The notes: generated by a model not told the origin, from the letters alone. DNA of 36,614 nt from Candidatus Omnitrophota bacterium (GCA_043821285.1 JBDRCZ010000053.1:1-36614); one strand, 5' to 3'; numbered from the stretch's first letter, positions 9,532 to 28,299 are shown. Numbers and translations are program-made.

Positions 9532-9617
9532 ACCTATCCGCCTCCTAAGAAAATCGCCTTCTGCATCGTTTTTTCCATTTCGTGAGTTTCGTGGTTACAG
9601 TTTTTTCGTGCAACATT

Positions 9618-10265: not shown

Positions 10266-10434
10266 AAAAGGGGACAGCTACCTTTTTAATTATTTCTTCG
10301 CCACGGACTTATACGGATGAAAAACACAGATTTTTTACAATCAAATCTTTTAACCTATTTTGACAGGATGAACAGGATTTATAAGATTTTAAATAATATG
10401 TGTTGATATCGTGTCAATCCTGTCTATATTCTTT

Positions 10435-10505
10435 TTTTAACCACCAATCGCGTAAACTGTCACAAATAAATATGCTCCATTCGTGTTATTCTGTGTTAGT
10501 TATGG
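10435..10505. repeat. Palindromic CACGAAT element copy, degenerate
   Basis: The left part is ttttaaccaccaatcgcgtaaactgtcacaaataaa. The right part is ccattcgtgttattctgtgttagttatgg. Confidence 0.6.
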
Positions 10506-10578
10506 CTTAAATATCTTTATCCGTGTTCAATCCGTGGCTGTATTTTTTTCTTTTTTTATCCGCAAAGCGTATAAATGC

Positions 10579-11382
10579 TTATTTTTGCGCAGTAAAAATA
10601 ACCTCAAAAACTATATTCTTAACCCAGCCCACCTTTTTATCTAAGCGTTCAACTTTGCTCCAGTCGTTATTACGTACCAATACCCGCACTTTCATTCCCT
10701 CCTCAAGAGTAAAATGCGTAGTTGCCCGGTCAAACGGCTCAAATTTCGCATCTGCCTTTTTGGAAATAATGATTGCTTCTTTCCCTAAGACAGAAATCCT
10801 CCTCTCTAGGAAAACCGCACTCAAGACAGAAAAAACGATTAAGATACTCAATAAAATTCTCGTATAGAGCCTGTGGGTTTTAAATACTATCCCCAAAATT
10901 ATAACCAGCACAAAAGCGACATAAATTAAGCATAAAAGAACCGTAATACCGTCAATTGTAAGCTGCGCATACAAATTATCCATAAACTGCAAAAGCCATG
11001 TTTTTTTCTCCTCTAAAGGGGGCACTTTAAGCAATGACCTTGCGTATTCATAATTTGACTGCAAATCCCGGTCCCTGGGGATTAACTGCTTTGCCCGTTC
11101 ATAATTTAAAATTGCCTGCCCCAGCACACCCTGTTTAAAATAACAATTACCCAAATTATAATACAGGCTGCCGCTTTCAAACCCCTTATCAAGTAAATTA
11201 CGATATGCGCTGGTTGCCTCAGCATATTTACCCTCTTCATAAAGTATATTTGCTTTATAAAACATGTATTCCGGGGTAAAAGCAGTATCTTCGGCAAACA
11301 AAACACCGGTATTTAGCAATAAGATACAAAACGCAAATATCAAAATTATCTTATGCATATTTTTGTCTTTCCAAGTAATCAA
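10579..11382 (-). CDS. BatE-like membrane protein (signal peptide, TPR, TM segments, C-terminal SH3-like region)
   Basis: It has a signal or anchor sequence. A TPR-like segment is present (YKANILYEEGKYAEATSAYRNLLDK…YYNLGNCYFKQG…). Central hydrophobic helices follow. Its position is last in the Bat-type gene order. Confidence 0.65.
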   Translation of the reverse strand: MITWKDKNMHKIILIFAFCILLLNTGVLFAEDTAFTPEYMFYKANILYEEGKYAEATSAYRNLLDKGFESGSLYYNLGNCYFKQGVLGQAILNYERAKQLIPRDRDLQSNYEYARSLLKVPPLEEKKTWLLQFMDNLYAQLTIDGITVLLCLIYVAFVLVIILGIVFKTHRLYTRILLSILIVFSVLSAVFLERRISVLGKEAIIISKKADAKFEPFDRATTHFTLEEGMKVRVLVRNNDWSKVERLDKKVGWVKNIVFEVIFTAQK

Positions 11383-13249
11383 TAACCATCTTTATTCTTT
11401 TTAGCGTTTCCGACATATTATCTTTGTTCAGTTCAGAAGAAGAGTATCTTAATATATCACAATCCTGGAAAATTTCTTTTAATGCCTTAAGGATTTCCTC
11501 ATCTACGTTTTTTGGCCGGAGAACTTCGTCAACAATATCTATAGTTATCCCACCGGTTGAAATATGCAGTTTATTTCCTAAATATATTTGCAGGGTCTTA
11601 AATATCGTATGATAAAACTCTTCGGTTTTTCCTTCTTTTAGCAGCCGTTCTGCTTCTTTAATCCCTTGTCTTGCCTGTTTTGGTGCGCGCAGGCTGCGGG
11701 CATACCTTACATCCGTTCTTAATCGCTCACTTCGCCGATAAACGGTTAACACAGAAATCAGCAAAATTATCGGGATAAACTGCAGCATAAGAAATTTTTT
11801 ATTTTTATACAAATATGCTGCCTTCTTTCTCAGTCTCCGTGGGGCGGTTTTAATATAAATAATATCCCGGCCTAATGTTTCCGTTTTAAGTGGCGAAGAA
11901 ACCACATCTGGCGCCCCGATAATTTTCAGCTCTTCTTCTTTTTCCTGCGGTTTCACGGAGATTGCAAACGGGCCTTTTGTTATACTCTGATACTTTTCAC
12001 GATCCGGGTCAAAAAAACTAAAGGTAATTGCCGGTACCTCACAAACTTCCTCAGTCCGGGGCATAAGCACCTGCTCAAATATCTTTTTATTATCCTCTAC
12101 TTTTACCTGCGGTTCATACGTCTTAAATATATCTCCCAATTCAAGTTTGGGTAAATTTACTGTATTAAAATTACCTTTTCCGGAAACCGTCATCTTAAGC
12201 GTAATCGGGTCACCAACTTTTAGTTCACGTGGTCCGACCTGAACATCAAAATTAAAATTTCCTATTGCCCCGCTAAACCCTTCAGGTTTCCCTTGCTCTG
12301 GTAACGAAGCTATTGTAACGGGTATTTCTACGGATTTTAAATCCATGGGATATGTTTCATACCGGCCGAAAAAATCCTCAAAAATATCACTATCAAAAAA
12401 AGAAGACGGCCTTCTTTGCCTTTGCTTTCTTATGACCAGGCTGCATTTGAAGTGTGCCGGGCCAAGAACAAAATCCCCTGTCCTTATTCCAAAAATATAC
12501 GTCTTAAATTCAAAAACATTATAGAGTATCCCTCCTAAAACCTCCTGGTATTGCTTATATTTCTCAAACTCCCCAACCGAAAAACCCTCATGTTCAAACG
12601 TAGGATACTGATCAGATTCTACCTTCAAGTTGTTTACATATAATTTAATCGTCAAGGGAATAATCTCATTTAAATAAACCGGTTTCTTCCCTACCTCCAT
12701 TACCAGAAAAATCTTATCTTCCAATTGCATTGCTGATTCATCGGGTGACTGGCCGGGTATAGCCTGCGCAGCCGGTTTATCTAAAACCTCAACATTTACG
12801 GTTCCTGATTTATATGTTTGCCCTTTATAAGTAACTGAAAACGGTCCAATCGTAAACATCCCTTTTTCTACTGCCAATAATCCATAACTATACGTTATCG
12901 AACTTGTCACCTCTCCATTGACAATAGACATCATTGTCGAAGGTCCAAGATAACGCGATTCAAATCCGTTTATTTTTGGCAGATCAGGAGAAGAAACGTC
13001 CTGTGTCCCGTGAAAAGTAAGAGAAAGCTGCAAAGTTTTACCTAAGGCAACCTTAGTCCTATCCACGGCAACTTCAAAAGTTATATTTTTAGCAAAACAC
13101 GGCAGTGTCAAAACATTAAAAATCAACAGAAAAATCAGTACATTTTTGCCATTTTTGATTTGACTATTATTTTTTATTATTTTATTTTTTGATTTGTTTA
13201 CCATTTGGAATTCGTCATTTGCCTGTCCGCTAATCTTTTTGCGGAACAT
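11351..13249 (-). CDS. BatD-family protein (aerotolerance-operon type; C-terminal TM plus cytoplasmic tail)
   Basis: The BatD-type signature …ITFEVAVDRTKVALGKTLQLSLTFHGTQ…LPKINGFE…YLGPS…SIVNG… is present. A TM lies near the C-terminus (FLMLQFIPIILLISVLTVY). The tail carries the motif …FQDCDILRYSS…. Confidence 0.8.
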   Translation of the reverse strand: MFRKKISGQANDEFQMVNKSKNKIIKNNSQIKNGKNVLIFLLIFNVLTLPCFAKNITFEVAVDRTKVALGKTLQLSLTFHGTQDVSSPDLPKINGFESRYLGPSTMMSIVNGEVTSSITYSYGLLAVEKGMFTIGPFSVTYKGQTYKSGTVNVEVLDKPAAQAIPGQSPDESAMQLEDKIFLVMEVGKKPVYLNEIIPLTIKLYVNNLKVESDQYPTFEHEGFSVGEFEKYKQYQEVLGGILYNVFEFKTYIFGIRTGDFVLGPAHFKCSLVIRKQRQRRPSSFFDSDIFEDFFGRYETYPMDLKSVEIPVTIASLPEQGKPEGFSGAIGNFNFDVQVGPRELKVGDPITLKMTVSGKGNFNTVNLPKLELGDIFKTYEPQVKVEDNKKIFEQVLMPRTEEVCEVPAITFSFFDPDREKYQSITKGPFAISVKPQEKEEELKIIGAPDVVSSPLKTETLGRDIIYIKTAPRRLRKKAAYLYKNKKFLMLQFIPIILLISVLTVYRRSERLRTDVRYARSLRAPKQARQGIKEAERLLKEGKTEEFYHTIFKTLQIYLGNKLHISTGGITIDIVDEVLRPKNVDEEILKALKEIFQDCDILRYSSSELNKDNMSETLKRIKMVIDYLERQKYA

Positions 13250-13286
13250 TTGTCATTAAAAATTTTTGCTAAAAGGCAGAAATTTT

Positions 13287-14174
13287 TCACCAGTTTTTCT
13301 CAACCTCCGGAAAATACCCGCGTCCTCTTTCCTGTTTAATATTTCCAGTTGGTTCCTCCTGGCGATAACCTTCCAACAGCATCTTTGCTTCCTGTTCAGA
13401 CATCTCCTTTGCTGCCTCCTGAGCGTCTTCTGCCGGCTTAACTACTTTTACCTCTTCTCCTGTTTGTCCTTCCTCATCTTTTTCCTCTGCTGCCCCTGGT
13501 TCTCCTACTTTCTCTTCCGCATCCTTTTTCTCCTGATAAACCGGCTCTGCTTTCTTCTCCTCTCCTTGTTTTTCTTCATCACCAACCGTTTGTGTCTTTT
13601 CCTGTTCTGGAGCCAATTGTTCTCCCTGTTCTTGTTTTTCTTGTTCTTGCTGTCCTTTCCCCTTTCCCTTTCCTTGCTGTTGTTTTAATTTATCCAGTAA
13701 AACCTTCAACTTTTTCTCAACAAACTCGTGATTATATTTTGCATCTTCATCCTGCGGATCAAGCTCAATTGCCCGTTTATAATAATCGAGCGCTTCCCGG
13801 TAAAGATTAACTGCTCCGCTCAAATCCGTATTTTCCTTAAGTCTCGCCTGCTCGTACTTACAATTACCAATATTATAATTTGCCCGAGCCTCTAAATCTC
13901 TGTTTTCGGTTTTCAGGGCATCAGTAAACGCCTCAATCGTCTTATCATAATCACCCTTTTTATACCATGACGCCCCTTTATTAAAACTTATTATATCAGA
14001 ATCCGGCATTGCTATGCCAGCTTCATTATATTTCTTAAGCGCCTCGTCAAATTTTCCTGCATTATAAAGCCGATTCCCCGCATCTACCGCACCCTTACCA
14101 GAAGCAGCAGCACATATTGCGGCAGCAAAAAATAAAATTATACTATTTAAAAATAATACATTCCACACTTTCAT
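13287..14174 (-). CDS. BatC-like TPR protein with an E/K/Q-rich low-complexity tail
   Basis: A signal sequence is followed by TPR-like repeats (…YNAGKFDEALKKYNEA…YKKGDYDKTIEAF…NIGNCKYEQARL…YYKRAIELDP…). The acidic tail is low-complexity (…QQQGKGKGKGQQEQEKQEQGEQ…). Confidence 0.75.
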   Translation of the reverse strand: MKVWNVLFLNSIILFFAAAICAAASGKGAVDAGNRLYNAGKFDEALKKYNEAGIAMPDSDIISFNKGASWYKKGDYDKTIEAFTDALKTENRDLEARANYNIGNCKYEQARLKENTDLSGAVNLYREALDYYKRAIELDPQDEDAKYNHEFVEKKLKVLLDKLKQQQGKGKGKGQQEQEKQEQGEQLAPEQEKTQTVGDEEKQGEEKKAEPVYQEKKDAEEKVGEPGAAEEKDEEGQTGEEVKVVKPAEDAQEAAKEMSEQEAKMLLEGYRQEEPTGNIKQERGRGYFPEVEKNW

Positions 14175-14206
14175 TTCATGACCTATCTTTTATTGTTTAA
14201 CCTCTC

Positions 14207-14288
14207 TTTTAACCACTAATTACACTAATTGTCACGAATCGTTAATTCTTTTTTCATTCGTGTAAATCTGTGTTATTCGTGGTTAAAA
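14207..14288. repeat. Imperfect palindromic intergenic element (about 82 bp), the clearest copy of the CACGAAT-heptamer family
   Basis: The left arm is ttttaaccactaattacactaattgtcacgaatcg. The loop is ttaattcttttt. The right arm is tcattcgtgtaaatctgtgttattcgtggttaaaa. The arms are reverse complements apart from a few mismatches. Confidence 0.8.
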
Positions 14289-14397
14289 TATTATATTAAT
14301 CTTTTGAATATAACACCTGAACTTATCAACCCGAACCGACACCGTTATATGACGGATTGGGGCTGGTGAAATAATTTGTTAGGCATTTATTATTTCT

Positions 14398-15336
14398 TTA
14401 TTTCCATAAAGATTCTTGTGTCCAATCATTTATACTTTTACTATGTTGATCCCAATATTTATATACAACATTTATATTTTTCGAATCCACCCATTGTTTG
14501 TTGAGGTTTTCTAAGTGATCAAATTGTGGGGTTGGAAGAGGAAAATAAGAGCCTTCAAATAGTAATGATCCATATATAAAAGAAGCAGTTTGGTAAATTG
14601 CTTTCCAACAATTTTCTAAGCGGTCAATAGAAATACCTTTTTGAGTTTTAGTTAAGCTTTTTCGAGTAGATGGAGCTGCTCCGTGGGCTATAAATTTATC
14701 TACATATTTTTTTGTATCTTTGCAAATATTTAATTTCTTTTCGAGATATCGAAACCAGGTTTTATTAATTAAATCGGTACGTTTTCTTCTGGTAGATTTA
14801 ACGTTAGATAATTTGTCAAAATTTTCATGTGCTAGTTCTGATGTTGGCCATGCTTTAGGTCCCTTTGAGGCTATCCAACCAGTTCTTAATGATTTAGATT
14901 TAGGAGTTGAGTCATAGGGTAAGCCATCATATGCAACATAGTTTTCTCTTGTTAAAAGATGCCTGTGTTTTTCTATATCAGAAGTTATGCTTTGCAAAGA
15001 AATTACGGCACGCTTAGGGTTAGGGTTCGAGGGGGGTTTTTCAATTAATCTTCGAATTGCAGTTGATTGAGTTGTTGCAAAGCCAATGTAAAATAAACGA
15101 AGTACAGAAGAGTTAAAAGCAACGTTGACTATGGGCTGTTCCATGGCCAATTTCCTTAAGTCATCAATAGTACGAAATAATACAAAATACCAAACATTCC
15201 AACTAATTTGATTCCAAATAGAGTTGGCGTCTTTTCCAATAAACCATTTAATCCATTGGCGCCTTTTTTTTCTAAATTCTTTCGTACTTCCCTTATCGGC
15301 AATATCACATTTTTTTAGTCTATATTTGTAACCCAT
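14398..15336 (-). CDS. Hypothetical protein of unrecognised family, encoded by an AT-rich gene inserted between BatC and BatB
   Basis: A clean 312-aa ORF is present. It has no TM segment or signal peptide and no motif I could assign. It is flanked on both sides by copies of the CACGAAT palindromic elements. Confidence 0.55.
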   Translation of the reverse strand: MGYKYRLKKCDIADKGSTKEFRKKRRQWIKWFIGKDANSIWNQISWNVWYFVLFRTIDDLRKLAMEQPIVNVAFNSSVLRLFYIGFATTQSTAIRRLIEKPPSNPNPKRAVISLQSITSDIEKHRHLLTRENYVAYDGLPYDSTPKSKSLRTGWIASKGPKAWPTSELAHENFDKLSNVKSTRRKRTDLINKTWFRYLEKKLNICKDTKKYVDKFIAHGAAPSTRKSLTKTQKGISIDRLENCWKAIYQTASFIYGSLLFEGSYFPLPTPQFDHLENLNKQWVDSKNINVVYKYWDQHSKSINDWTQESLWK

Positions 15337-15433
15337 TTATTTTCCTTATCCTTTGTGTCTAACATAAAACACAGTTGCCCGGCACGCTTTCATAGCGGGT
15401 AACGGTTAATTGTAGTAGCTGGTTATATTCCTT

Positions 15434-15620
15434 TTTTAACCACCAATTGCACGAATTATCACGAATAATTTTTATTCTCACACGGAGTCGCAGAGTTCAC
15501 AGAGTTTTTTATCTTTTAACCACGAAAGTTACGAAATACACAAAAAAAATGCTTTTATTAAATGATTTTCTCATCCTCAACGTATTTTTAACTATTTCGT
15601 GCCTTTCGTGGTGAATAAAA
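15434..15620. repeat. Cluster of CACGAAT-family arms (two left arms and one right-arm-like segment)
   Basis: The segments are ttttaaccaccaattgcacgaattatcacgaataat (15434-15470), ttttaaccacgaaagttacgaaatacac (15515-15545) and ctatttcgtgcctttcgtggtgaat (about 15595-15620). Confidence 0.6.
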
Positions 15621-15688
15621 ATTTTTCATTTTTTTCTCAGTGCCTCTGTGTCTCCGTGTGATTATCTGTTTTTTTTATTTATAAACAA

Positions 15689-16687
15689 TTATTTTCTCCG
15701 CGGAACTATAATGGGGCAAATCAACAACAAAACAAACGCCACAAAGAGTGGTATCTGAAACCGCTCTTCATACTGCTTTCGCATCTTACTTTCCAACTCT
15801 CGCTTTTCCATTTTAGCGAGTTTTTGTTCATAAATCAAATCCAACCCGAATTCCGCGCCTCTGGCGCGCACATAACTGCCGCCGGTATTTAAGGCAATCT
15901 TTTGTAATGTAACCTCATCCAAACGCGTCTTAACCACATTACCCTGTTTATCCTTAAGAAACGATTTATTTCCGCTTTCATCGGTTATCGGAATAAGCTC
16001 TCCTTCATTAGTCCCGATACCGATACAAAATATTTTTATCTCCTCTTTTTTCGCCTCTTCCGCTGCTTTAACCGGGTCGCCCGCATGATCTTCGCCGTCA
16101 GTAATCAGCACGAGAATTTTATATTTCTTCTGCCCGCCCTCATAACTTTTAACTGCCTCTCTTATTGCGCTGGAAATTGAAGTACCTCCTTTAGGGATTA
16201 TCTCCGTATTAAGATTATCCAAAGAAAGCAAAAACCCGTTATAATCTACGGTTAACGGACACTGCAAAAACGCACTACCTGAAAAGGCAATCAAGCCAAT
16301 TCTATCCCCTTTTAGTTTTTTTAGCAAATCCAGCACCGCCATTTTTGAACGCTTTAGCCGATTCGGCTTCACATCTTCCGCAAGCATACTCCGGGAAGTA
16401 TCAATTGCAATCAAAATATCCAACCCGCTTCTTTTCACCTCTTCCCAATGAAACCCCCACTGCGGCCGCATTAAGGCCAGACAACAAAAAACAAGCGCTA
16501 AAAAAGTAAGAATTATTTTTAACCTTTCCTTCTTTCGGTTCAAAGAAACCAACAATTCATTCAGCAGTTCTTTATCGGCAAAGCGTTCCAAAAGTCTTTG
16601 CTTTTTTCTAACCGCCCATAAATAAAAAACTGCTAACGCAAAAACCAGCCACAACATATACACCGCATTTATATTAGCAAATCTCAT
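15689..16687 (-). CDS. BatB-like vWA-domain membrane protein
   Basis: Two N-terminal TM segments are present. The vWA MIDAS motif is …LIAIDTSRSMLAEDVKPNRL…. Further vWA blocks are …IGLIAFSGSAF…LTVD… and …ILVLITDGEDH…. Confidence 0.85.
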   Translation of the reverse strand: MRFANINAVYMLWLVFALAVFYLWAVRKKQRLLERFADKELLNELLVSLNRKKERLKIILTFLALVFCCLALMRPQWGFHWEEVKRSGLDILIAIDTSRSMLAEDVKPNRLKRSKMAVLDLLKKLKGDRIGLIAFSGSAFLQCPLTVDYNGFLLSLDNLNTEIIPKGGTSISSAIREAVKSYEGGQKKYKILVLITDGEDHAGDPVKAAEEAKKEEIKIFCIGIGTNEGELIPITDESGNKSFLKDKQGNVVKTRLDEVTLQKIALNTGGSYVRARGAEFGLDLIYEQKLAKMEKRELESKMRKQYEERFQIPLFVAFVLLLICPIIVPRRK

Positions 16688-16821
16688 ATCACACCTAATC
16701 TAAACATTTGTGGTTTTCTGTTTTTTTAACCACCGAGAACACAAAGTCCACAGAGAAATTTTATAAGTAACCTTTGCATTCTATATTTTAATACTTTTAC
16801 ATTGTTTTATATCTACTACAC

Positions 16822-16905
16822 TTTCACCACTAATTACACGAATTGTCACGAATAAAATAAATATACCCTATTCGTGTAACTCTGTGTTATCCGTGGTTTA
16901 AAAAT
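16822..16905. repeat. Palindromic CACGAAT element copy
   Basis: The sequence is ccactaattacacgaattgtcacgaataaaataaatataccctattcgtgtaactctgtgttatccgtggtttaaaa. It has the same architecture as the 14207-14288 copy. Confidence 0.75.
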
Positions 16906-17212
16906 ATCTTTTAGTCTTATCTTTTTTATCCGCAGCTCTATTTTATTTTTTAGCTACGCTACACGGATAAAACACGGATTTTTTAATAATAAAATCTTAA
17001 ACTATTTTCTGACAAGATGAACACGATTTACAAGATTTTTAAATATATTTATTTTTATCCTTTTATCCTGTTTACCTCGTTAGAAAATGCCAACTTACCC
17101 TATTAAAAAAATAAACCCTTCCAACATGATTATTACAAAACGTTTTTACTGACAATGTTATCTTTATTATTTTCTAACGGGGTTTATCGTGTTAATCTTG
17201 TCTATGTTTTTT

Positions 17213-17303
17213 TTCATTCGTGTCAATTGGTGTTATTCGTGGTTAAAACGTTTTTAGTTTCGTCTTTTCTTATCCGTGTTCAATTCGTGTCTATCCGTGG
17301 TTC
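17213..17303. repeat. CACGAAT-family right arm plus the TCCGTGTTCAATYCGTG variant
   Basis: The sequence ttttcattcgtgtcaattggtgttattcgtggttaaaa is followed by tatccgtgttcaattcgtgtctatccgtggttctg. Confidence 0.65.
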
Positions 17304-17328
17304 TGTAATTGCATTTCGCGTTGTCAAT

Positions 17329-18324
17329 TCAGGGTATTCTTCTCAGCACCGTATTACCCAACACAATCTCTAAACATATCAAAACCACCGCCGGAATCAA
17401 AAACAAATAAAACAACTCTTTATACTCCATATACCCTTTTTCTTCAATCGGAGTTTTTTCCAGCTTATCGATTGTTTTATAAATCTCGCGCAAAGACTGC
17501 GTATCCGTTGCTCTAAAATACTGCGCATTAGTTTTCGCGGCAATTTTGATTAAACTATCTTCGTCGATATCTATTTCAACAGACTGATATACAGTATTTC
17601 CAAAAAAATCTCTTGCCGGATAAGGCACCAGGCCTTTACTTCCTGCACCAATAGTATAAACCTTCACCTTTAGTGCCTGCGCGGCCTCAGCCGCGGTAAA
17701 CGGCGAGACCTTACCGGAATTATTCCTGCCGTCAGTAAGTAAAATTACCACCTTACCTTTGGCTTTTGTATCTTTCAGCCGGTCCAAAGACGACATTATC
17801 CCTGAGCCAACCGCGGTACCATCTTCGACCATACCGATTTTTACCCTTTCTAAATTCTGCAGCAGCCAGCCATAGTCTAAGGTAAGCGGGCAAACCGTAT
17901 AGGCACGGGAGCCAAAGACCACCAGTCCAATACGGTCATACTGCCGGCCGTTTATAAAATCAGTAACTACGTCTTTAACAACCTCCAGCCGGTTTTGCCG
18001 CTTATTCCCCAGTTTAAAATCCTCCGCCAGCATACTTGTAGACACATCAACTGCGAGCACAATGTCAATCCCCTCGGTTATAATCCTGGTTTCTTCCAAT
18101 GCCGACTGCGGACGAGCTAAGGCAATTACAATCAACAAAAGGGCGGCGATGCGTAAAAATATAATATTTTTACTTAATCTTACCTTAAAAGACGGTTTAA
18201 GCCCCTGCAGCAACTCACCCGAAGAAAAAATCACTGCCGGTTCTCTTTTTCTACGTTTCTGATAATATCCCGCAGCTAATACCAGCAGCAATAATATTAA
18301 AATCCAGGGATCATTAAAATGCAT
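17329..18324 (-). CDS. BatA-like vWA-domain membrane protein
   Basis: TM segments lie at the N- and C-termini. The vWA MIDAS motif is …VLAVDVSTSMLAEDFKLGNKRQNRL…. Further vWA blocks are …IGLVVFGSRAYTVCPLTLD… and …VVILLTDGRNN…. Confidence 0.85.
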   Translation of the reverse strand: MHFNDPWILILLLLVLAAGYYQKRRKREPAVIFSSGELLQGLKPSFKVRLSKNIIFLRIAALLLIVIALARPQSALEETRIITEGIDIVLAVDVSTSMLAEDFKLGNKRQNRLEVVKDVVTDFINGRQYDRIGLVVFGSRAYTVCPLTLDYGWLLQNLERVKIGMVEDGTAVGSGIMSSLDRLKDTKAKGKVVILLTDGRNNSGKVSPFTAAEAAQALKVKVYTIGAGSKGLVPYPARDFFGNTVYQSVEIDIDEDSLIKIAAKTNAQYFRATDTQSLREIYKTIDKLEKTPIEEKGYMEYKELFYLFLIPAVVLICLEIVLGNTVLRRIP

Positions 18325-18514
18325 TATAAATAATCCTTTGTTGGTTTTGTCAAAAACTACCGATATTTAATAAACATCCATAGGTTACAGGCAATCATAG
18401 ATGCCAAAGAGAAAAACGTTTGTTGGATACGGTTACGACTCTCCGCCAATTCCTTCATAAAGATTAGCTGATCTATGACTTTGTAATGAAAAATTATAAA
18501 TAAAAAAGTTCTCT

Positions 18515-19568
18515 TTATATTGCGGTACCCAACCTGTCCTGAGTAAAACAAGGAGAAAATTTTAAAAGGTGTTGATTTTTGGTTAAATATTCCTTAACCT
18601 TTTCCCTCATATGCACATAACCTTGCGCCAAAAAACCTCCGGTTCCACAACAAGGATCATAAACCGTCTCACCAACGTTAGGATCAATAACCTTAACCAT
18701 TATGCGAATAACTTCTCGCGGAGTAAAAAATTGGCCTCCGTCATTATTCTTAGCGCCCATATTCAGAAGCAAACCTTCATAAACTTGAGACAAAGTAAAC
18801 ATATGCGTATCGTCAACCTGCTCAATGGAAAGTTGATTAATCTTATCTAAAATATCCCAAAGGTTTCTTTCGGTATCAATACCGGTTTTCTCCACCGAAG
18901 AGAATACCTCACTAATTACCTTTTGACGAGATGTTGCGCCAGTCCTTTTCTCTAATTCTCTTAAATGAAGAATAAGCTCGCCATTGACAAAAGACATAAA
19001 CCGTTCTATTTTTGCCCTGGGCAATTTTCTCTAAGACCGCGCGTATGGCAGCGTCTTGATAATAACGCCTACTTGCCTCGCCACGTGTATATGGAACCAG
19101 AAGAGGCTTTGTCTTTTCGCTATCAAGAGAAAACCCCATTCCTTTTTCGTAACGGGAGCGTAATTCCTCTGGGGTAGGAATTTTATCTATGACTAAGGGT
19201 TCAGATGTTTTGCCGGTAAAACTATCGTATTCTACAAATAAATCTCCGTTACAAGAAAAAACAAAAGGCACATTATTCAACCGTGCATATTTCTTGGCCT
19301 GTTCAAGACCTTTATCTACTGGCTCATCACTCTTTTTAGCTTCGATTAAAGCAATAGAAATTGGCTGAGAGCTAATATTGACCCGGATCCGCAACAGATA
19401 ATCGGTTCTCCCCTTTTGTTTACGCCGAGGCTGACCTTTAATAATTTCAACTCCTCTTTCAGTTTCTTCGCGCCTGATAAGGTCTTCAGTCCAACCTCTT
19501 TTATGAAGCGCTGAATCGATAAATTTTGCCCTGGTATCTGCTTCGCTCAAATATTCTGCGTTATTCAT
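18515..19568 (-). pseudogene. Remnant of a restriction-modification gene. An HsdR-N/Mrr-like nuclease N-domain is joined to the N-terminal part of an N6-adenine methyltransferase. It is frameshifted and truncated at the 3' end.
   Basis: ORF 18912..19568 reads MNNAEYLSEADTRAKFIDSALHKRGW…RRYYQDAAIRAVLEKIAQGKNR, an HsdR N-terminal signature. The overlapping ORF 18515..19024 (TTG start) reads …GGQFFTPREVIRIMVKVIDPNVGETVYDPCCGTGGFLAQ, which is MTase motifs X and I. It then stops. No NPPY motif or target-recognition domain follows. The two frames can be joined at the A5 run in GGCAAAAATAG. Confidence 0.6.
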
Positions 19569-19885
19569 CTTTTATCAATCCCTCATCCGCAAAACTATAA
19601 TAATTATCATCTCCGATTATAACGTGATCCAGATAATTATTTATTCGTCCTCTTTACTTATGATTTTTCCACCACAATACCGGTAGATATTCAATCCTAC
19701 ACAAGGTGCTGGTGGCGTTCCGGTTCGTTGTCCGGTTAATTTTGTGTTTACTTCAAGGCTTATGTTTGCCTTGCCTTCCAATGCATCGAAAAACCGCCAG
19801 CCGGATTCTTCCAATAACTTATTTTTTTATATGCGTGCTTTTGCCTCTTTTGCCATCCGCTATCTTCCATTCCAACAATTTTGGG

Positions 19886-20461
19886 TCAAAGCATATCCGA
19901 TAAATCTACGGGAGCACGCATCCCTGCTGTAGCTTCTTCTTTATCAAAATGCTCCGGCTCAAAATCTCCCGCCCATCCTTTCATTTCTTCATATTCTTCA
20001 TGTTTAGGGTCGGCGAGTATTTTAAGCAATTGGTAATATCCGGGTGTTGATCCACAATCTTCCGGTGGACACGCGCGGGCGCCGTCAATACAACAAGGAT
20101 ATTTCATTCCTTTCCGTACAGGCTCTATTGCTTCCAAGATTATCGTATGCTCCCAACTATCACCAAAGTCATATGTATAGCTGAGTTTTGTCTTATCCTT
20201 AGAAAAATAATCGCTGATTTTCTTATCCTTTTCATTCCATTGTGGCGGGTCTCCAAATTCACACGCTTCCTCGCTTGCATCGCCTATTCTGAAATTTCCG
20301 GCATTGAATTCATGTAAATGTGAATTTGTCCAGCCCATCGCTTCCTGTATCATAAGATGAAACTGATAGAACGTAATATCGCTCTTAACCTCTATCATTC
20401 TCCATAGTTGAGGTAAAATATCATCAAGAACAATCTTAAACCGAAATATTTGCTTTGCCAT
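19886..20461 (-). CDS. Plasmid pRiA4b ORF-3 family protein
   Basis: Family motifs are present: …LWRMIEVKSDITFYQFHLMIQEAMGWTNSHLHEF…YTYDFGDSWEHTIILE… and the C-terminal …CIDGARACPPEDCGSTPGYYQLL. An AAAAGGAGGTG ribosome-binding site is present. Confidence 0.75.
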   Translation of the reverse strand: MAKQIFRFKIVLDDILPQLWRMIEVKSDITFYQFHLMIQEAMGWTNSHLHEFNAGNFRIGDASEEACEFGDPPQWNEKDKKISDYFSKDKTKLSYTYDFGDSWEHTIILEAIEPVRKGMKYPCCIDGARACPPEDCGSTPGYYQLLKILADPKHEEYEEMKGWAGDFEPEHFDKEEATAGMRAPVDLSDML

Positions 20462-20755
20462 ACATCCACCTCCTTTTTAAATCAAATGAAACATTATTCG
20501 TGCCATTTATCCGCGATAAATCCGTCATATTTGTGAATATTCCGCCAAATATAATTCCGCCACAAGATCGAATATCCGCCATCGTATTAGTGGAGGACAC
20601 TGGCAGGCAGACAAATGCTCTGCCCACCAACCGGTAAGTAAACTACTTCGAATCTTTTAATCTTCAAATCTTAGAATCTTCCAATCTTGTAATATTCGAA
20701 TTTTCTATGCTCAATACTCGATACGCAATACACATTACTAACTAAATCTTCATAC

Positions 20756-21778
20756 TTAAAATATTACTTCCTTCGTCTGCTCGACAAACACCCTGGCGGA
20801 ATCATAACTCGCATCAATCTCTGTTTCGGTTGGCCCATACTCGGCGAACTTTACCAAATCACAATGAGAAAGAAACGTTCTTAAGAGCCCCTTTTGTTCT
20901 ATTGAGAGCGTATTAGCATCTTTCACCTTTATTAAAAACTCCTCAGTGGTCATCTCTGGGGCGCGCAGCTCAAAGCGGTTTTCCAGGTAATGCCTAATAA
21001 TATCCGAAAGCCGCTGATGGTACTCTTTAATCCGGCCTTGCGGGACAAGTTGTTCTTGTCTGAGAATTTCCAAGTCTCGATAAGCTATTTCGTGCGCTGG
21101 CGGCGGAGGGATAATCTCATTTTTTTTCTTTTTCCTGGCCAAATAAATAACCAGCCCGGAGATAATCACAAGCACCAGCAAACCACCTATCAGATAAGAT
21201 GATATTTTTCGCGGAAAACGAACCGGGCCTTTAATATCGCGAATTTCCGCGGCATTCTTTGCCTTTTCCAAGACACTCTTAACCTCTATTTCTACCTCAT
21301 CTGTTTCAATCTCCTGCCATTCATCCCTGCCTTTTAATTTATACTTTACTACGGTTTTAGGGATTGTATACTTACCACTGGTATACGTATCTAAAACATA
21401 CCACTGTTGATAAGTAATTTTCCTAAAAAACTTTTTCTCAGAAGAACCAAAATCACGAATAGCAAAACCCGCAAGATTATCGGCAAATTTCGGCAGTTCA
21501 ACTTCTACACTATCTTTTGCCTGGACAACAATGGTATATTTTATCTTATCCCCGATAAAAACCGCATTTTTATCAACCCTGGCCTCAACCTGAACAATAC
21601 TCTGTTTCTTACCTACCTTCACATCCTGATTAGCGGCAAAAACAGGAGTAAAAAAAAGGAGTAAAAAAAGACATATTTTTATCACAGTTTTAATTAGGTC
21701 TATCTTCATATTGTCTGCTTCTTTGATAAACGACAGCCTTTGTCGTTCATCGTTATAAGTAATTATTTTTCCCGCCAA
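20756..21778 (-). CDS. Membrane protein with a signal peptide, an extracytoplasmic domain, a single TM and a cytoplasmic tail. It resembles the tail region of BatD.
   Basis: A signal peptide (ICLFLLLFFTPVFAA) is followed by a mid-protein TM (YLIGGLLVLVIISGLVIYLA) and a polybasic stretch. A poly-Pro linker comes next. The tail motif …FLSHCDLVKFAEYGP… resembles the BatD tail …FQDCDILRYSS…. Confidence 0.55.
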   Translation of the reverse strand: MAGKIITYNDERQRLSFIKEADNMKIDLIKTVIKICLFLLLFFTPVFAANQDVKVGKKQSIVQVEARVDKNAVFIGDKIKYTIVVQAKDSVEVELPKFADNLAGFAIRDFGSSEKKFFRKITYQQWYVLDTYTSGKYTIPKTVVKYKLKGRDEWQEIETDEVEIEVKSVLEKAKNAAEIRDIKGPVRFPRKISSYLIGGLLVLVIISGLVIYLARKKKKNEIIPPPPAHEIAYRDLEILRQEQLVPQGRIKEYHQRLSDIIRHYLENRFELRAPEMTTEEFLIKVKDANTLSIEQKGLLRTFLSHCDLVKFAEYGPTETEIDASYDSARVFVEQTKEVIF

Positions 21779-21876
21779 GACGCAAAGTTCGCAAAGATTT
21801 TTTAACTACAGATGATCGCCGATAAAAAAATACCGGTGATCACAGATTGTAAAACAACATTTAAGCATTTTTTTAG

Positions 21877-21972
21877 CCACGGATTCACACGGATAAACGA
21901 CAGACTTTTTAATAATCAATTTGTTTAACCTCATTTTTTATCAGTGTTCAATCCGTGAAAATCTGTGGTTTT
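21877..21972. repeat. CACGGAT-variant palindromic element
   Basis: The left part is ccacggattcacacggataaac. The right part is cagtgttcaatccgtgaaaatctgtgg, an inverted arrangement of the same heptamers. Confidence 0.65.
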
Positions 21973-22325
21973 GTCTTTTCTTTTACTTTGCAACACGTTG
22001 CATCATTTCTTGTAACCCAGATAAGAAAGAATCTATTTTCTAACAACAAATAGCACAAATATAAAATCTGATTTTATAATTTATTCATGTAAGAAGACCC
22101 AGCATTATTCGTTATTTTATCTTATTACAAATTAATGCGCAAGAAAAAATTTGGTAGGTGTGTATTTCTCCCTTGGAATTTTAATGCATATTCAGGACAC
22201 AATGTACATTAAAAAAGGAACTAAATGGCTGTTTGTATTTCTTCACCAGCCTTATGTAATTCTCCGATGGTGGGGGTTACTGGCTGTATAGTGCACTAAA
22301 GCAGGGTCTATATATTGTTTAACAG

Positions 22326-23552
22326 CTATCTGTGGAGCGTTTCTTCGGGTAACTGTGTTATAAACCGCGTTTTTTCTTTCTTCAATATATCTTGTTGAAC
22401 TGTCTCCTCTGCTCCTTTAAGTTTTTGTATGAAAACATCGATACTATTTGCACTATATGAGATTAATGCCCAATAGGAAGTGATTATCAAAAGGTCTCCT
22501 TTGGCAGAAAAAGAAATAGTATTAAATATATCTGTTTCTTTCACATGAGATAAAACATTCCGCAAAGACTCATCATGGACATTCATAGCAACCGCATAAG
22601 TAGCAATTATCCATTGTTGCTTGAGCTCTTCCGGAATAATATCTCCGAGAACTCTTTTGTAGTACTGTATCACTTTTTTAAGTGACTCATCATGGCCATT
22701 CATAGCAACCTCATAAGTAGCAATTACTAATTGTTTTTTTAGCCTAAAATCAAGTCCTTCTTTTTGCATTCCAAGTGCTTTCAGGTAAATCTTTATCGTC
22801 TCATAAGGAGTAGTGTTAGCTCTTACACAATAAAACGTGGCTATGGCAAGATTTGAACGCAATAACTTTTCTTCCTCATCACTTATATCAAGTTCTCTCA
22901 GATAACCTTCATATATATCTCTTAATTCACCAACCTTTGCTAAGACATACTTTGCTGTAATAATTTGCTTTATTCTTTCTAGAGTAAATCTGCCTTCTAT
23001 CCACCTCCAGTCATATTCCCTGCCGCCAAAGTTCCCATCTATAGGCAAATTATATTTCTCAATCTCTCCTTTATCAGTATATCGTAATGACAATCTTACT
23101 TCATATTCCAACACTAATACCCCGATTAGCCCTTTCTTTGGCTCAATATCAGGATATATCCTTATCTTTATGTCGCCTTCGCATATTTCTCCTGCATATA
23201 CAAGACCGTTTATAAGTGCATGAGCATAGTTCCGTTTTTTCGTTTCTTTGTATTCACGCTCCCAGAATTTCATGAATCTTTTATAACTTGCAGCTTCTGT
23301 TGCAATATCCCCTTCACGTGGAGACGAAACATCTGTTATTAGCTGCTCTGGCATGCGTCCTTGCGTATACAATTTAAATAATTCTTGGACTTCAGGGGTA
23401 TCTGTTTCTACGGCTGGGGCAAGATGGTTGTGCAGGCCTTTTAAACTACCTCCGGCTGCCCAAGAAATATCCATACATAGAAAGGCGTTAATTAATATAA
23501 TTGCAATTATTTTAAATAAAATTTTGGTTTTCATGTTCCACATAATTAACAC
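22326..23552 (-). CDS. Hypothetical secreted or anchored protein with internal tandem repeats of about 38 aa
   Basis: The N-terminal hydrophobic leader is …KIIAIILINAFLCMDISWAAGGSLKGLHNHLAPAV…. The repeats are LKKQLVIATYEVAMNGHDESLKKVIQYY / LKQQWIIATYAVAMNVHDESLRNVLSHV. No family was recognised. Confidence 0.6.
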   Translation of the reverse strand: MLIMWNMKTKILFKIIAIILINAFLCMDISWAAGGSLKGLHNHLAPAVETDTPEVQELFKLYTQGRMPEQLITDVSSPREGDIATEAASYKRFMKFWEREYKETKKRNYAHALINGLVYAGEICEGDIKIRIYPDIEPKKGLIGVLVLEYEVRLSLRYTDKGEIEKYNLPIDGNFGGREYDWRWIEGRFTLERIKQIITAKYVLAKVGELRDIYEGYLRELDISDEEEKLLRSNLAIATFYCVRANTTPYETIKIYLKALGMQKEGLDFRLKKQLVIATYEVAMNGHDESLKKVIQYYKRVLGDIIPEELKQQWIIATYAVAMNVHDESLRNVLSHVKETDIFNTISFSAKGDLLIITSYWALISYSANSIDVFIQKLKGAEETVQQDILKKEKTRFITQLPEETLHR

Positions 23553-23849
23553 CTACGACCAACATAATGATAAATATCCCGCCACAAAGATTGGCGGACA
23601 GGCAAATTCCAAAATCCCCGCCACACCGCATCAGTGGGCAGGCCCTCCACAAAACATCGGCGGGCAGGCAATGAATCTCTAAATAATTCAATCAAAGAAT
23701 CAAAAGGCAAAATGACAATTGAAAATTAAAATATTTTTTTTAACTTTTTCAGTTTTTCTTCGCGGCCTTCGTGGTAAAATTTTATTTTCGTGTGTTTCGT
23801 TTGTTTTTTCTGTAAATAGTAAACACAAAAGTTGACCACGTCAACTTTT

Positions 23850-25463
23850 TTAGATTGCCTGTTCTACCCCTTCTAATTTATTCACCTGCATAGAACCAAG
23901 TCTTTCTGTTAAAGATAAAACACCATGTAAGATATGTGATAGAATTGTGCGTGATAAACTATTTTTTTCTATAGGGCGGCCCATTGCTTGCAACAAACAT
24001 CGAGGGCCACCTTTTAGGCACCCGGCAACAATCGACTCAATCGGGAAAATTTGTTCAAAACCTAAATCTCGATATATCTGAGCTACAAATTGGTCTAACT
24101 GTGGTATTTCATATTGCGGTATAATAATAGACCGCTTTATTTTCCCATTCCCCGTATCTGGATAACAATCCATCACTACATTTGTATAATACAGCCCAAA
24201 TGGATTATCGGCAAAATCAATTGGCAAAGCAGGAACCCGGCGGACAGTAATTCCTTCTGCCTCTAAACTTTCCCTCACTCTTTCTAATTCCTGAACATAC
24301 TCAGATTGTTTAGCCTTTTCAATTTCTTCAGGTGTTACATCTAAAAATCCACGTAGTTGCTCGCGGGTAATATTAATAAAAGAACTCGACGCTATATTTT
24401 CAATTACTATCTCTTTTTCTTCTGGAGTGAGTGCAGCAATAATTTCCAGTGCCTTTATAGGATCAGCCAAAAGACTAGTATGCTCCCCATATTTTGTCTT
24501 ACCAATAGGTACGTGATATCGGTCATTATGTATATCAGGGCAGTCTAAAACAATAACTTGCCTTCCTGTTACTGCCTCGATTTTTCTAATAGCTTCCTCT
24601 TCTGTTAGAACCTTTTGACTTGCTATATTATAACAAGAATAATGTACTGTCTGTTTACCTACATACACATACGAACCATCAGCAGTAACATCCCCACCTT
24701 GCATGTCTAATGTCTTATCACTAAAATTATTGTCTACGATTGCATCCCAAGCATCTGTATTCATAATCTGCATGCCTACAGATCTATCAAGCCCTGTCCC
24801 TGCATCGCCCTTTATTGGAACTACAGAATATTGTTTGGTCTTTTGATTTACTAATACAATATATGGGTCTCTTGCCCACGATGAAGAAAATCCTCCCTTC
24901 ATAATAATAAAACGTAACCTCTGCTCTAAATTCTTTATATTTTTTCTTCGAAGTCCTCCCAGTGTTAGAGAAGCGCTGAGTTCAGAATTTGTAACCACTA
25001 TAAGTTTTACATCATCTCTTAATACCTCGGCCAACCTTCCTGCCATAATCGCTCCCATCTCATCCCCAACTTGAAATATAGCTGCTTCCATCATGCTATT
25101 AGAATCAGATACAATTTTAAATTCTGTAAGGTTACTTATCTTATGCGGATTTGTAGGATTGGCAATAAGTTCTGGTGGCACCTTTGGAATGGCAGTCTCT
25201 ATCTTTGACCTCGCCCTATCCAAAAATTCCAAAAGTTTCTTTTTATCAGCAAGCTCCGTTGCTACGTGTGGCACTATGCCGATACCCGCAGCCAACAGGA
25301 ACAGAAAACTTCTCCGTGAGATACAGCCGGTTGTTCGATGCTCCTTCAGTATACTCAACACCTCCCGGTATAGTCTCTCCAGAAAACTTTGAATTCCCTC
25401 AAGTAGTCCCCCCGTGACATTTTTGGCAACGGTAGGCTTGAGATCGGGCCCGGCAACACTCAT
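23850..25463 (-). CDS. Agmatine deiminase / peptidyl-arginine deiminase (PAD_porph-type) family enzyme with a Tat-type signal
   Basis: A twin-arginine motif GCISRRSFLFLLAAGIGIV lies about 45 aa from the annotated start, so the start codon is probably further downstream. A WARDPY block (the agmatine-deiminase WxRD motif) is present. The C-terminal catalytic Cys context is …KGGPRCLLQAM…. Confidence 0.65.
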   Translation of the reverse strand: MSVAGPDLKPTVAKNVTGGLLEGIQSFLERLYREVLSILKEHRTTGCISRRSFLFLLAAGIGIVPHVATELADKKKLLEFLDRARSKIETAIPKVPPELIANPTNPHKISNLTEFKIVSDSNSMMEAAIFQVGDEMGAIMAGRLAEVLRDDVKLIVVTNSELSASLTLGGLRRKNIKNLEQRLRFIIMKGGFSSSWARDPYIVLVNQKTKQYSVVPIKGDAGTGLDRSVGMQIMNTDAWDAIVDNNFSDKTLDMQGGDVTADGSYVYVGKQTVHYSCYNIASQKVLTEEEAIRKIEAVTGRQVIVLDCPDIHNDRYHVPIGKTKYGEHTSLLADPIKALEIIAALTPEEKEIVIENIASSSFINITREQLRGFLDVTPEEIEKAKQSEYVQELERVRESLEAEGITVRRVPALPIDFADNPFGLYYTNVVMDCYPDTGNGKIKRSIIIPQYEIPQLDQFVAQIYRDLGFEQIFPIESIVAGCLKGGPRCLLQAMGRPIEKNSLSRTILSHILHGVLSLTERLGSMQVNKLEGVEQAI

Positions 25464-25663
25464 CTCCGCATCCCCCGCTTCCCCATATAACCTGTAAAAT
25501 TTTCTATATTTTCAGTATTATCTAACCTTATGGCTGGGGCAAGGTGGGTATGGAGAGATTTAAGGCTGCCTACCGCGGCCCAGGCAATGTCCAAGCAGAG
25601 AAAGGCATTCACTAATATTATGGCGGTCAATCTGAACCAAATTGTACGTGTCAAATTATTCAT
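25460..25663 (-). CDS. Small ORF encoding a copy of the N-terminal leader module of the 408-aa protein, possibly a remnant
   Basis: The product (67 aa) reads …TAIILVNAFLCLDIAWAAVGSLKSLHTHLAPAI…. This is about 70% identical to residues about 15-47 of the protein encoded at 22326..23552. Its stop overlaps the deiminase start (ATGA). Confidence 0.4.
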   Translation of the reverse strand: MNNLTRTIWFRLTAIILVNAFLCLDIAWAAVGSLKSLHTHLAPAIRLDNTENIENFTGYMGKRGMRR

Positions 25664-26152
25664 ATGTTATGTCCAATGTTTTTTGAGTTTCTAATTGACC
25701 TAATTGCTCTAATCTACTAGAAACTCAAAACCACAATTAAAATTTAGAGGTTTTTTTATTCTATTTTACCTTTTTACTTTTGACTTGTACCTTTAATTCA
25801 TTCGTGAAGATTTGTGTAATTCGTGGTTGAAAAATAAAAAATATAACTACTTTTCGACAAGATTTACCTCATAAGAAAACTTCACTTGACACTGTTTTCT
25901 TATACTTGGTCTATTTTCTTTAGCTTTGTTTTAAATATATTGCCAATAATTTTAAAATCTATTTAAAAAACTATTTTTAAAAGTATACCATATATTTCGG
26001 ATTTTTCAAGGGTTTGGCAAAATTTTTTTGGTAAAAGGTGTAAAAGGTTAGCTCTTATCTGAACGGCTAATTTCCTCATTCAGATTTTAGATCGTTTAAA
26101 GCCTGCGGAAATTTTTTCGTTCTTTTTTGATGGGAAATAAAATAAGACAAAA

Positions 26153-26232
26153 CCACGGATAAATACAGATTGGACACGAATAAAAAATGAGATCAAATCA
26201 TTAGCCTTTTAAAATCCGTGTTAATCCGTGGC
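26153..26232. repeat. CACGGAT/CACGAAT-variant palindromic element
   Basis: The sequence is ccacggataaatacagattggacacgaataaaa … aaaatccgtgttaatccgtggc. Confidence 0.6.
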
Positions 26233-26247
26233 TATATTCTCTTTTAA

Positions 26248-28153: not shown

Positions 28154-28258
28154 ATATACCTATACTCTCCTATTATCTTCCTTTGAAAATTTCTAATTGC
28201 TTCAACCTGAGCGAGCCAGAACCAAACACAATCACGCCACTTTTGGCTCGTTCAGGTT

Positions 28259-28299
28259 GTTATATAAAAACCTACGGTTTTCAAGCTTTCCCTTTTATT
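28259..28299 (-). promoter_or_regulatory. Conserved 41-bp promoter/operator box upstream of the DUF58 gene, containing the palindrome AAAACCTACGGTTTT
   Basis: The plus-strand sequence is gttatataaaaacctacggttttcaagctttcccttttatt. It is identical to the box at 29446-29486 at 40 of 41 positions. In the minus sense it reads TTGAAAACCGTAGGTTTTTATATAAC. A 16-bp stem-loop (28203-28259) lies between the box and the ribosome-binding site. Confidence 0.5.

Follow-up and report, generated by a model that had tools for sequence, protein, structure and literature searches.

The 36,614-nucleotide stretch of DNA analyzed here (GCA_043821285.1 JBDRCZ010000053.1:1-36614; hereafter the window) is a complete contig of a metagenome-assembled genome (MAG) of a Candidatus Omnitrophota bacterium and has a G+C content of 38.7%. 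Nearly all of its genes lie on the minus strand and together form a MoxR/Bat operon, which is broken up by accessory open reading frames (ORFs). The spacers of this operon carry palindromic elements whose two arms are arrays of short direct repeats, and arms of the same construction are found in other genomes on either side of a gene for a small nuclease of the GxxExxY family. These elements and their relationship to the nuclease gene are the subject of this report. The coordinates of all features are collected in Table 1.

Palindromic arrays in the spacers of the Bat operon

A typical arm consists of three direct copies of a 7-nucleotide core repeated with a period of 9-11 bp. AAC, usually with a T-run before it, stands ahead of the outermost core. 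The opposite arm is the reverse complement of this arrangement and finishes with GTGGTT, after which comes an A-run. Inverted pairs, nested pairs, and solo arms are all found. The pattern AACCAC-N5-7-CAC-N6-8-CAC has 10 matches in the window compared with 0.02 expected from dinucleotide shuffles, and none of 100 shuffles reached 10. All 10 of these strict matches fall in spacers, which make up approximately 24% of the window on our own ORF map, in agreement with the intergenic placement proposed in a first-pass annotation made from the sequence alone.

That annotation had described a family built from CACGAAT and CACGGAT heptamers, and all ten places it listed carry the arrays described. Both heptamers are indeed present, but they are accompanied by other cores, including CACAGAG, ACGAAA, and ACAGGAT. 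At least eight core types occur in this one 36-kb contig: CACGAAT, CACGGAT, CACAGAG/CACGGAG, ACGAAA, ACAGGAT/ACAAGAT, CGCAAAG, CTTCGTG, and ATCTGCG. The types that had been overlooked include CACAGAG/CACGGAG (15478-15668, 16724-16760, and 29904-29931), ACAGGAT/ACAAGAT (10355-10426 and 17005-17205), CGCAAAG (21771-21797), and CTTCGTG (2796-2826 and 23757-23775). Some of the listed places are also not single palindromes: 15434-15668 comprises a solo arm and two palindromes, one within the other, 17213-17303 holds two solo arms, and 25798-25834 is a single solo arm. Likewise, the proposed heptamer spacing of 10-11 bp holds for the CACGGAT type of the window, but the CACGAAT type has a period of 9-10 bp, which is slightly under one helical turn rather than equal to it. 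Among 222 arms from many genomes, the spacers between cores are mostly 3 nucleotides long on the inner side and 2 on the outer side.

Inverted arms of 33 nucleotides are 79-88% complementary, both within and between elements. When folded as single-stranded DNA, the best copy (14200-14295) forms a hairpin with a z score of -6.9, and five further window elements give values from -2.1 to -3.6, whereas the copy at 10430-10515 has decayed (z +0.3). Free core positions agree between the two arms of an element in 86% of cases, but spacer positions in only 48%. The conserved feature is a set of cores, not a continuous stem. Two composites, at 10300-10541 and 16955-17303, have the same nested layout, and the left ~125 bp of the latter is ~80% identical to 10290-10415.

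The 7-mer varies between elements and is uniform inside one. Of 139 arms, 137 have inner and outer cores of a single type (ATCCGTG or ATTCGTG); independence of the two cores would predict about 51 mixed arms. Genomes with several arm matches have one core type each, without exception.

Insertions at Bat junctions

The nearest Bat operons available for comparison come from other Omnitrophota (L201-L204), whose BatB proteins are 72-73% identical to that of the window. In these relatives the junctions are compact, ranging from overlaps to 106 bp, and thus the elements of the window are insertions. The BatA-BatB junction is 33 or 106 bp long in the relatives and 641 bp in the window. BatB and BatC overlap in the relatives but are separated by 1,514 bp in the window, a distance that includes the ORF at 14398-15336. 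Similarly, the rotamase and BatD-like genes overlap in the relatives and lie ~4.5 kb apart in the window, and the junction between the BatD-like gene and BatA grows from 9 bp to ~2.4 kb. The expansion of normally tight junctions that had been suggested from the window alone is therefore borne out, with empty junctions at the same positions in related operons. The polymorphism is not confined to the window. At the BatC-BatD junction, L203 has 6 bp and the window 37 bp, and the 182-bp spacer of L201 holds a palindrome of the same architecture with other cores (CCGCAAAG/CGCTAAA ... TTTTGCG/TTTAGCG). Orthologous Bat junctions are thus polymorphic for the presence or absence of these elements, and the spacers of this operon have been inflated by 0.2-4.5 kb through the repeats.

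Evidence for amplification also comes from a planctomycete MAG that carries six copies of a gene-less family of ~175 bp with unrelated flanks. Together, the empty junctions, the nesting, the duplicated composite, and this six-copy family fit a mobile or amplifying element. In the planctomycete genome (Planctomycetia MAG S4R_St_57; L005, L017, L078, L094, and L119) the heptamer palindrome is part of the larger ~175-bp repeat, which has outer inverted ends of its own (AAACTGTAAA...TTTACAGTTT).

Distribution beyond the window

The arms are widespread. A search of one-genome-per-species contigs with the pattern ATYCGTG-N7-GTGT-N-ATYCGTGGTT, for which about one chance match is expected in 596 Gb, found at least 120 stretches from at least 12 phyla. 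The hosts among the matches listed include Verrucomicrobiota (many of them Opitutales), Planctomycetota, Bacteroidota, Pseudomonadota (Sulfuricella and Phenylobacterium), Chloroflexota, Acidobacteriota, Spirochaetia, Nitrospirota, Cloacimonadota, Calditrichia, KSB1, and Binatia, and the cultured carriers among them include Chryseobacterium lathyri, Bremerella sp. JC770, and Oleiharenicola lentus. The full layout, in which AAC-CACGGAT-nn-CACGGAT-nnn-CACGGAT is followed by a loop and an inverted arm, recurs in both GC-rich and AT-rich genomes. In 120 loci selected by their arms, relaxed arms number 278 compared with 5 after shuffling.

A CACGRAT-type arm is also present in 20 IMG/VR stretches, which are putative viral contigs (L213-L232). 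No GxxExxY gene was found in these 20 stretches.

Association with GxxExxY nuclease genes

When the 2,162 ORFs of the 120 arm-selected loci were clustered all-against-all, GxxExxY emerged as the one small protein found beside arms, apart from families that are generally abundant in genomes of the Planctomycetes-Verrucomicrobia-Chlamydiae (PVC) group (sulfatases, Gfo/Idh/MocA proteins, ABC ATPases, and ECF sigma factors). No transposase, recombinase, or integrase recurs near the arms in this clustering. The GxxExxY proteins are ~120 amino acids long and match TIGR04256 (E 1e-38 to 1e-43) and the Pfam family PDDEXK_3 (PF13366), which has a PD-(D/E)XK fold, and the catalytic residues of the nuclease are conserved. 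The family is very large, with 28,345 clusters at 50% identity (E<=1e-3), but its sequences reveal no solved relative and match no PADLOC or PHROG family. The sole literature entry on the family gives its function as 'Unknown', with 'multiple transfers'.

The arm-selected loci contain six GxxExxY genes, including one pseudogene, and each of the six has an arm less than 250 bp away. The same relationship is seen when loci are chosen by the protein alone. In 80 such metagenome loci, the density of strict arms is 1.05 per kb up to 300 bp from the GxxExxY gene and 0.036 per kb beyond, a 29-fold difference, and the nearby arms are mostly of the AAC-first form upstream and the GTT-last form downstream. 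Arrays of any 7-mer, with one mismatch allowed per 7-mer, were also compared between 67 loci and 316 control window pairs. Two or more upstream copies, accompanied by two or more inverted copies downstream, were found at 39 of the 67 loci and in 7 of the 316 controls, and three or more copies per side at 16 loci and in none of the controls. The arms and the GxxExxY gene are thus physically linked.

On inspection by eye, most of the GxxExxY genes examined have a direct array on one side and the inverted copy of that array on the other, with many different cores. These include CACGGAT, CACGAAT, CACAGAT, CACTAAT, CACGAAA, CGCAGAT, CGCGGAT, TACGAAT, ACAGGAT, ACAGAAT, CGCAGAC/CACAGAC, CGCAGAG, CACAGAG, and CCAAGAC, among others, and several of them are the additional types found in the window. 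For example, the core type of the weak candidate arm at 28370-28387, CGCAGAT, flanks GxxExxY genes in L125, L142, and L184. The median arm is 32 nucleotides long. The full-length form of the element consists of an arm, a GxxExxY gene as the only gene between the arms, and an inverted arm. At two loci (L007 and L010) no palindrome encloses the gene, which is situated between palindromes.

One locus, L032, has a PIN-domain ORF (Pfam E 5e-7) between AAC-first and GTT-last arms at 2853-4004, and arm pairs can therefore enclose genes other than GxxExxY.

One gene-bearing copy lies between ychF and a NUDIX/idi gene, where an identical GxxExxY protein (P0185) is found in 22 contigs, always at this position. 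The arms of the P0185 element use TACAGAT. At the same site in other contigs, every repeat of both arms is CACGGAT (L121) or TACGAAT (L122 and L123). This copy is old and positionally stable, and its repeats covary.

Two small conserved hairpins stand between the arrays and the GxxExxY ORF at the ychF-idi locus (L121-L123 and L205-L212), GGACGC-aa-GCGTCC upstream and GCAGC-ttta-GCTGC downstream. Elements of the CGCAGAC type have a hairpin at a similar position (cggccgacatggccg).

Comparison with known systems and proposed mechanism

Several known systems resemble these elements in part. In REPIN-RAYT systems, doublets of repetitive extragenic palindromic (REP) sequences, or REPINs, are accompanied by a REP-associated tyrosine transposase (RAYT), a domesticated Y1 transposase of the IS200/IS605 type (Bertels and Rainey 2011, PMC3116915; Di Nocera et al. 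2013, PMC3733652). Like these, the elements described here are short intergenic repeats, single or in inverted doublets of ~80-130 bp, that can form hairpins and reach many copies per genome; one small nuclease-type gene is flanked by the repeats at a stable, vertically inherited locus; and the repeat sequence is specific to a lineage or family. In contrast, a REP unit is an imperfect palindrome of 20-40 nucleotides with a GTAG/CGTC head, whereas each arm here is made of three direct 7-mers with an AAC/GTT cap and is not palindromic alone. The enzyme is a PD-(D/E)XK nuclease of the GxxExxY family instead of an HUH/Y1 enzyme, several core types can occupy a single contig, and very similar arms are found across phyla. 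Overall, the elements work most like REPIN-RAYT systems, yet they lack two defining traits of these systems, the structure of the REP unit and the HUH enzyme.

The resemblance to bacterial miniature inverted-repeat transposable elements (MITEs) such as Correia, Nezha, and MITEAba12, which are deletion derivatives of DDE insertion sequences, is also considerable. Both are non-autonomous, intergenic, 50-400 bp long, and bounded by terminal inverted repeats, and both form multicopy families with nesting and share their ends with a longer gene-bearing relative. Unlike MITEs, the arms have no DDE transposase near them in the 120 loci and no visible target-site duplication, and their longer relatives encode only the ~120-amino-acid GxxExxY nuclease. 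Certain transposons, including Mu (L1-L3/R1-R3), Tn7 (TnsB sites), IS21, and Tn402, carry two to four direct binding-site repeats at each end, with the two ends inverted relative to each other as in the elements here. Their sites are 19-22 bp long, bind large DDE transposases, and finish in TG/CA instead of AAC/GTT, and the transposons themselves are kilobases long. Finally, restriction-fold nucleases are known to serve selfish or mobile DNA, as exemplified by the PD-(D/E)XK homing endonuclease I-Ssp6803I and by TnsA of Tn7. The former is intron-encoded and the latter requires TnsB, and neither has flanking 7-mer arrays.

The window elements have the anatomy of the GxxExxY-associated element: inverted arms, two to four direct 7-mers at a 9-11 bp period, the AAC/GTT cap, and uniform cores. 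We consider it somewhat probable that they are gene-less, non-autonomous REPIN/MITE-like relatives of that element and that their cores are binding sites for a nuclease acting in trans. An oligomer of GxxExxY would bind the cores, with its three protomers or dimers on each arm arranged along approximately the same side of the helix, and protein specificity and core sequence would evolve together. Such co-evolution would explain why the approximately six cores of an element are uniform while different elements of one contig have different cores. Gene-less arm pairs would be acted on in trans by a nuclease whose gene resides at another site in the genome, and the cut might be made at the AAC/GTT boundary, close to it, or on an extruded hairpin or cruciform. 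Cutting might then allow gene-less elements to spread into AT-rich intergenic DNA, much as the RAYT transposase maintains REPINs. The first-pass annotation had offered a MITE/REP-like mobile element and a repeated binding module as two explanations. Both find support, and the elements are probably both at once, with the GxxExxY nuclease, whose gene lies between arms at independent loci, as the candidate binder.

Several observations weigh against this interpretation. No GxxExxY gene or remnant was detected in the 36.6-kb window by tblastn or by the family hidden Markov model on six-frame translations. The window copies can therefore be classed only as gene-less relatives, and a trans-acting partner has to be assumed for this genome. 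Neither the six aligned copies of the planctomycete family nor the flanks of the window elements show a target-site duplication, although AT-rich, partly palindromic flanking sequence could hide one of 2-4 bp. The position of P0185 at one fixed locus in 22 contigs indicates that gene-bearing copies are stable and not jumping, which fits the RAYT analogy yet provides no evidence of mobility. Several loci have a GxxExxY gene between two complete palindromes, or arms of the same sense on both sides, and thus the layout is not uniform. With respect to generality across the family, the 80 protein-selected loci encode relatives (41-64% identity) of proteins first met beside arms. Furthermore, no lone PD-(D/E)XK nuclease is known to serve as a transposase.

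A broader proposal, which we advance tentatively as possible but short of probable, is that GxxExxY/PDDEXK_3 proteins are the trans-acting nucleases of an undescribed class of prokaryotic selfish element, a PD-(D/E)XK counterpart of RAYT-REPIN systems. Their 7-mer arms would co-evolve with them, and gene-less derivatives would occupy intergenic regions in Omnitrophota, PVC bacteria, Bacteroidota, and many further phyla. If true, this would give TIGR04256/PF13366 its first functional context and would account for the palindromes that recur between genes in hard-to-culture environmental phyla. A restriction-fold nuclease would also join DDE and HUH enzymes as the third enzyme type among the maintainers of interspersed bacterial repeats. 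The diverse cores, each matched to a small protein of its own, would amount to a natural collection of short DNA-recognition specificities. On a practical level, the repeats probably break MAG assemblies and could be used as lineage markers. Among interspersed non-autonomous palindromic repeats, the arm architecture and the candidate partner enzyme are new here. No description of these elements was found in the literature searched, the scope of which omits most subscription journals, and the suggestion that the family was previously unrecognized is to that extent not contradicted.

Alternative explanations

The chief alternative holds that GxxExxY is an invader of the homing-endonuclease type, which would cut the center of existing palindromes and be copied into the loop by repair with the arms as homology, while the arrays would be made, bound, and spread by another factor. 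This is unlikely in our view, because it leaves unexplained the direct-repeat architecture, the uniformity of cores, and the concerted change at the orthologous ychF-idi site. Moreover, no other recurrent protein is found near the arms in the 120 loci, and at L007 and L010 the gene is not inside a palindrome at all. More doubtful is the idea that the arrays are immobile binding modules for a host protein (operators, insulators, or nucleoid-organizing sites), with gene-less copies arising in place and the link to GxxExxY reflecting autoregulation only. Direct repeats near one helical turn are typical of cooperative binders, many arms end 15-40 nucleotides ahead of a start codon, and the gene-bearing copies are positionally stable, all of which would suit such modules. 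However, the 139 arms show no orientation bias with respect to the downstream gene (same strand 45, opposite strand 39), and thus they are not the promoters or operators of a regulon. An array of transcription-factor operators resembling the direct repeats of OmpR or PhoB was rejected for the same reason and for the number of core types in one contig. That number, the presence or absence of elements at orthologous operon junctions, the nested copies and multicopy gene-less families, and the near-identical arms in unrelated phyla all speak against immobile modules.

Only marginally less probable than that is a role as RNA, in which operon transcripts would pair into hairpins that stabilize or process the mRNA, perhaps as RNase III sites comparable to the stems around intervening sequences of 23S rRNA. 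Being inside a co-directional operon, all of the elements would be transcribed, and they fold better than shuffled sequence. Nevertheless, mismatches of the G.U type are not in excess on the sense strand (31 vs. 27), which indicates that the symmetry of the arms acts on DNA and not RNA. The poor pairing of the spacers between cores, the frequency of solo arms, and the lack of a preferred orientation relative to genes point the same way, and pairing alone does not need direct repeats. The stems are AT-rich, with T-runs before and A-runs after the hairpin on both strands, and hence they are not intrinsic terminators. No Rfam family matches the elements, either at gathering scores or at E<=1, and no tRNAs were found. 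Least probable of all are integron-like or other site-specific recombination sites bounding gene cassettes. Such sites would explain the accessory ORFs of the Bat operon (14398-15336, 18515-20461, and 22326-25463), which are bracketed by arms, and the elements, as imperfect palindromes of 60-140 bp between genes, are similar in size to integron attC sites. Direct repeats in inverted arms also exist in lambda-type attP sites. But attC sites consist of inverted R and L boxes (R''-L''/L'-R', RYYYAAC/GTTRRRY) with extrahelical bases and act as single-stranded DNA with IntI, features that are not seen here, where the cores of an arm are direct repeats. No recombinase recurs near the arms, and the Rfam searches are again negative. 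Furthermore, ordinary housekeeping genes (MetRS, RibD, and GmhA) lie between outward-facing arms in other genomes, and thus the arms are not cassette boundaries.

Further features of the window

Table 1. Palindromic elements, arms, and genes of the window (cores in capitals, spacers between cores in lowercase)
Coordinates	Feature	Strand	Details
2796-2826	Arm, CACGAAG type	-	ATTGGTG ... CTTCGTG-at-CTTCGTG-GTT
9576-9611	Arm, CACGAAA type	-	TTTCGTG-ag-TTTCGTG-GTT plus third TTTCGTG
10300-10541	Composite, layout as 16955-17303		Outer CACGGAC/ACGGAT/CACAGAT-type arms 10300-10331 and 10519-10541, ending GCCAC/GTGGC
10355-10426	ACAGGAT-type palindrome inside composite 10300-10541		10350-10430 z -2.35
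10435-10511	Decayed element, CACGAAT type, inside composite 10300-10541		CACCAAT..CACAAAT / ATTCGTG..TTCTGTG; z +0.3, poor hairpin
10579-11382	BatE/TPR
11351-13249	BatD
13287-14174	BatC/TPR
14207-14288	Best-preserved complete element, CACGAAT type		33-nt arms, 82% complementary; left arm TTTTAAC-CACTAAT-ta-CACTAAT-tgt-CACGAAT, 16-nt loop, right arm ATTCGTG-taa-ATCTGTG-tt-ATTCGTG-GTTAAAA; hairpin -16.4 kcal/mol, z -6.9; BatC/TPR start codon 33 nt downstream
14398-15336	Accessory ORF		No family match
15434-15468	Solo arm, CACGAAT type	+	TTTTAAC-CACCAAT-tg-CACGAAT-tat-CACGAAT
15478-15668	Nested element pair		Outer arms 15478-15510 and 15632-15668, CACGGAG/CGCAGAG/CACAGAG type
15514-15620	Inner element of 15478-15668, ACGAAA type		Arms 15514-15546 and 15585-15620; z -3.6
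15689-16687	BatB
16724-16760	Solo arm, CACCGAG/CACAAAG/CACAGAG type	+	BatB start codon 41 nt downstream
16821-16905	Complete element, CACGAAT type		BatA-BatB spacer; z -3.1
16955-17303	Composite		Outer CACGGAT-type arms 16955-16982 (+) and 17270-17303 (-)
17005-17205	ACAAGAT/ACACGAT-type palindrome inside composite 16955-17303		Arms 17005-17035 and 17183-17205
17213-17248	Solo arm, CACGAAT type, inside composite 16955-17303	-
17329-18324	BatA
18515-19568	Accessory ORF		Type I restriction-modification fragments
19886-20461	Accessory ORF		PRiA4_ORF3
20756-21778	BatD-like
21771-21797	Arm, CGCCAAG/CGCAAAG cores	+	9-bp period; resembles CCAAGAC-type arms flanking GxxExxY gene in L181
21875-21972	Complete element, CACGGAT type		AGC-CACGGAT-tca-CACGGAT ... 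ATCAGTG-ttca-ATCCGTG-aaa-ATCTGTG-GTT; z -2.1
22326-23552	Accessory ORF		No family match
23757-23800	Arm	-	CTTCGCG-gc-CTTCGTG-GT, then TTTCGTG/TTTCGTT units
23850-25463	Accessory ORF		No family match
25798-25834	Solo arm, CACGAAT type	-
26150-26233	Complete element, CACGGAT type		AAC-CACGGAT..ACAGAT..CACGAAT ... ATCCGTG-tta-ATCCGTG-GCT; z -3.5
26248-27294	Rotamase-like
27275-28153	DUF58
28370-28387	Weak candidate arm	-	ATCTGCG-atc-ATCTGCG; abuts MoxR stop codon
28388-29383	MoxR
29904-29931	Solo arm, CACAGAG type	-	CTCTGTG-aa-CTTTGTG-tg-CTCTGTG-GTT

The accessory ORFs at 14398-15336, 22326-23552, and 23850-25463 have no match in Pfam, NCBIfam, PADLOC, or PHROGs, and nothing meaningful in the PDB. 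The second of these contains an internal 117-bp repeat, and upstream of the third, the region 25530-25640 resembles by eye a second copy of the N-terminal coding region (23410-23510). Between the BatD-like gene and BatA, which are 9 bp apart in relatives, the region 18515-20461 holds two fragments (N6_Mtase and HSDR_N) of a type I restriction-modification system in overlapping ORFs, together with the PRiA4_ORF3 gene.

Other repeats are also present. A distinct, GC-richer family with the form CCGCCAC...GGCGG(G/A)CAGGCA and small hairpins occurs at 13207-13241, 20540-20620, and 23575-23665, directly upstream of the accessory ORFs at 19886-20461 and 22326-23552 and as an inverted copy near the BatD start. 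An 8-nucleotide unit, AATCTTnn, is repeated five times in tandem at 20651-20690, upstream of the BatD-like gene. The MoxR gene is flanked on both sides by a 59-nucleotide repeat (28241-28299 and 29428-29486, 88% identity), and the MoxR-DUF58 spacer is 234 bp long in the window compared with 44 bp in the related operon L201. Non-coding repeat blocks at 34765-34969 and 35755-35912, which are 88-91% identical and ~990 bp apart, hold AAAACCACCAAG... and ...GGGTGGTTAAAA ends reminiscent of the arm caps. At the opposite end of the window, a 276-bp unit is present in four tandem copies (2-1150, 72-79% identity) that fall mainly within the ORF at 278-1150, which points to a repetitive protein.

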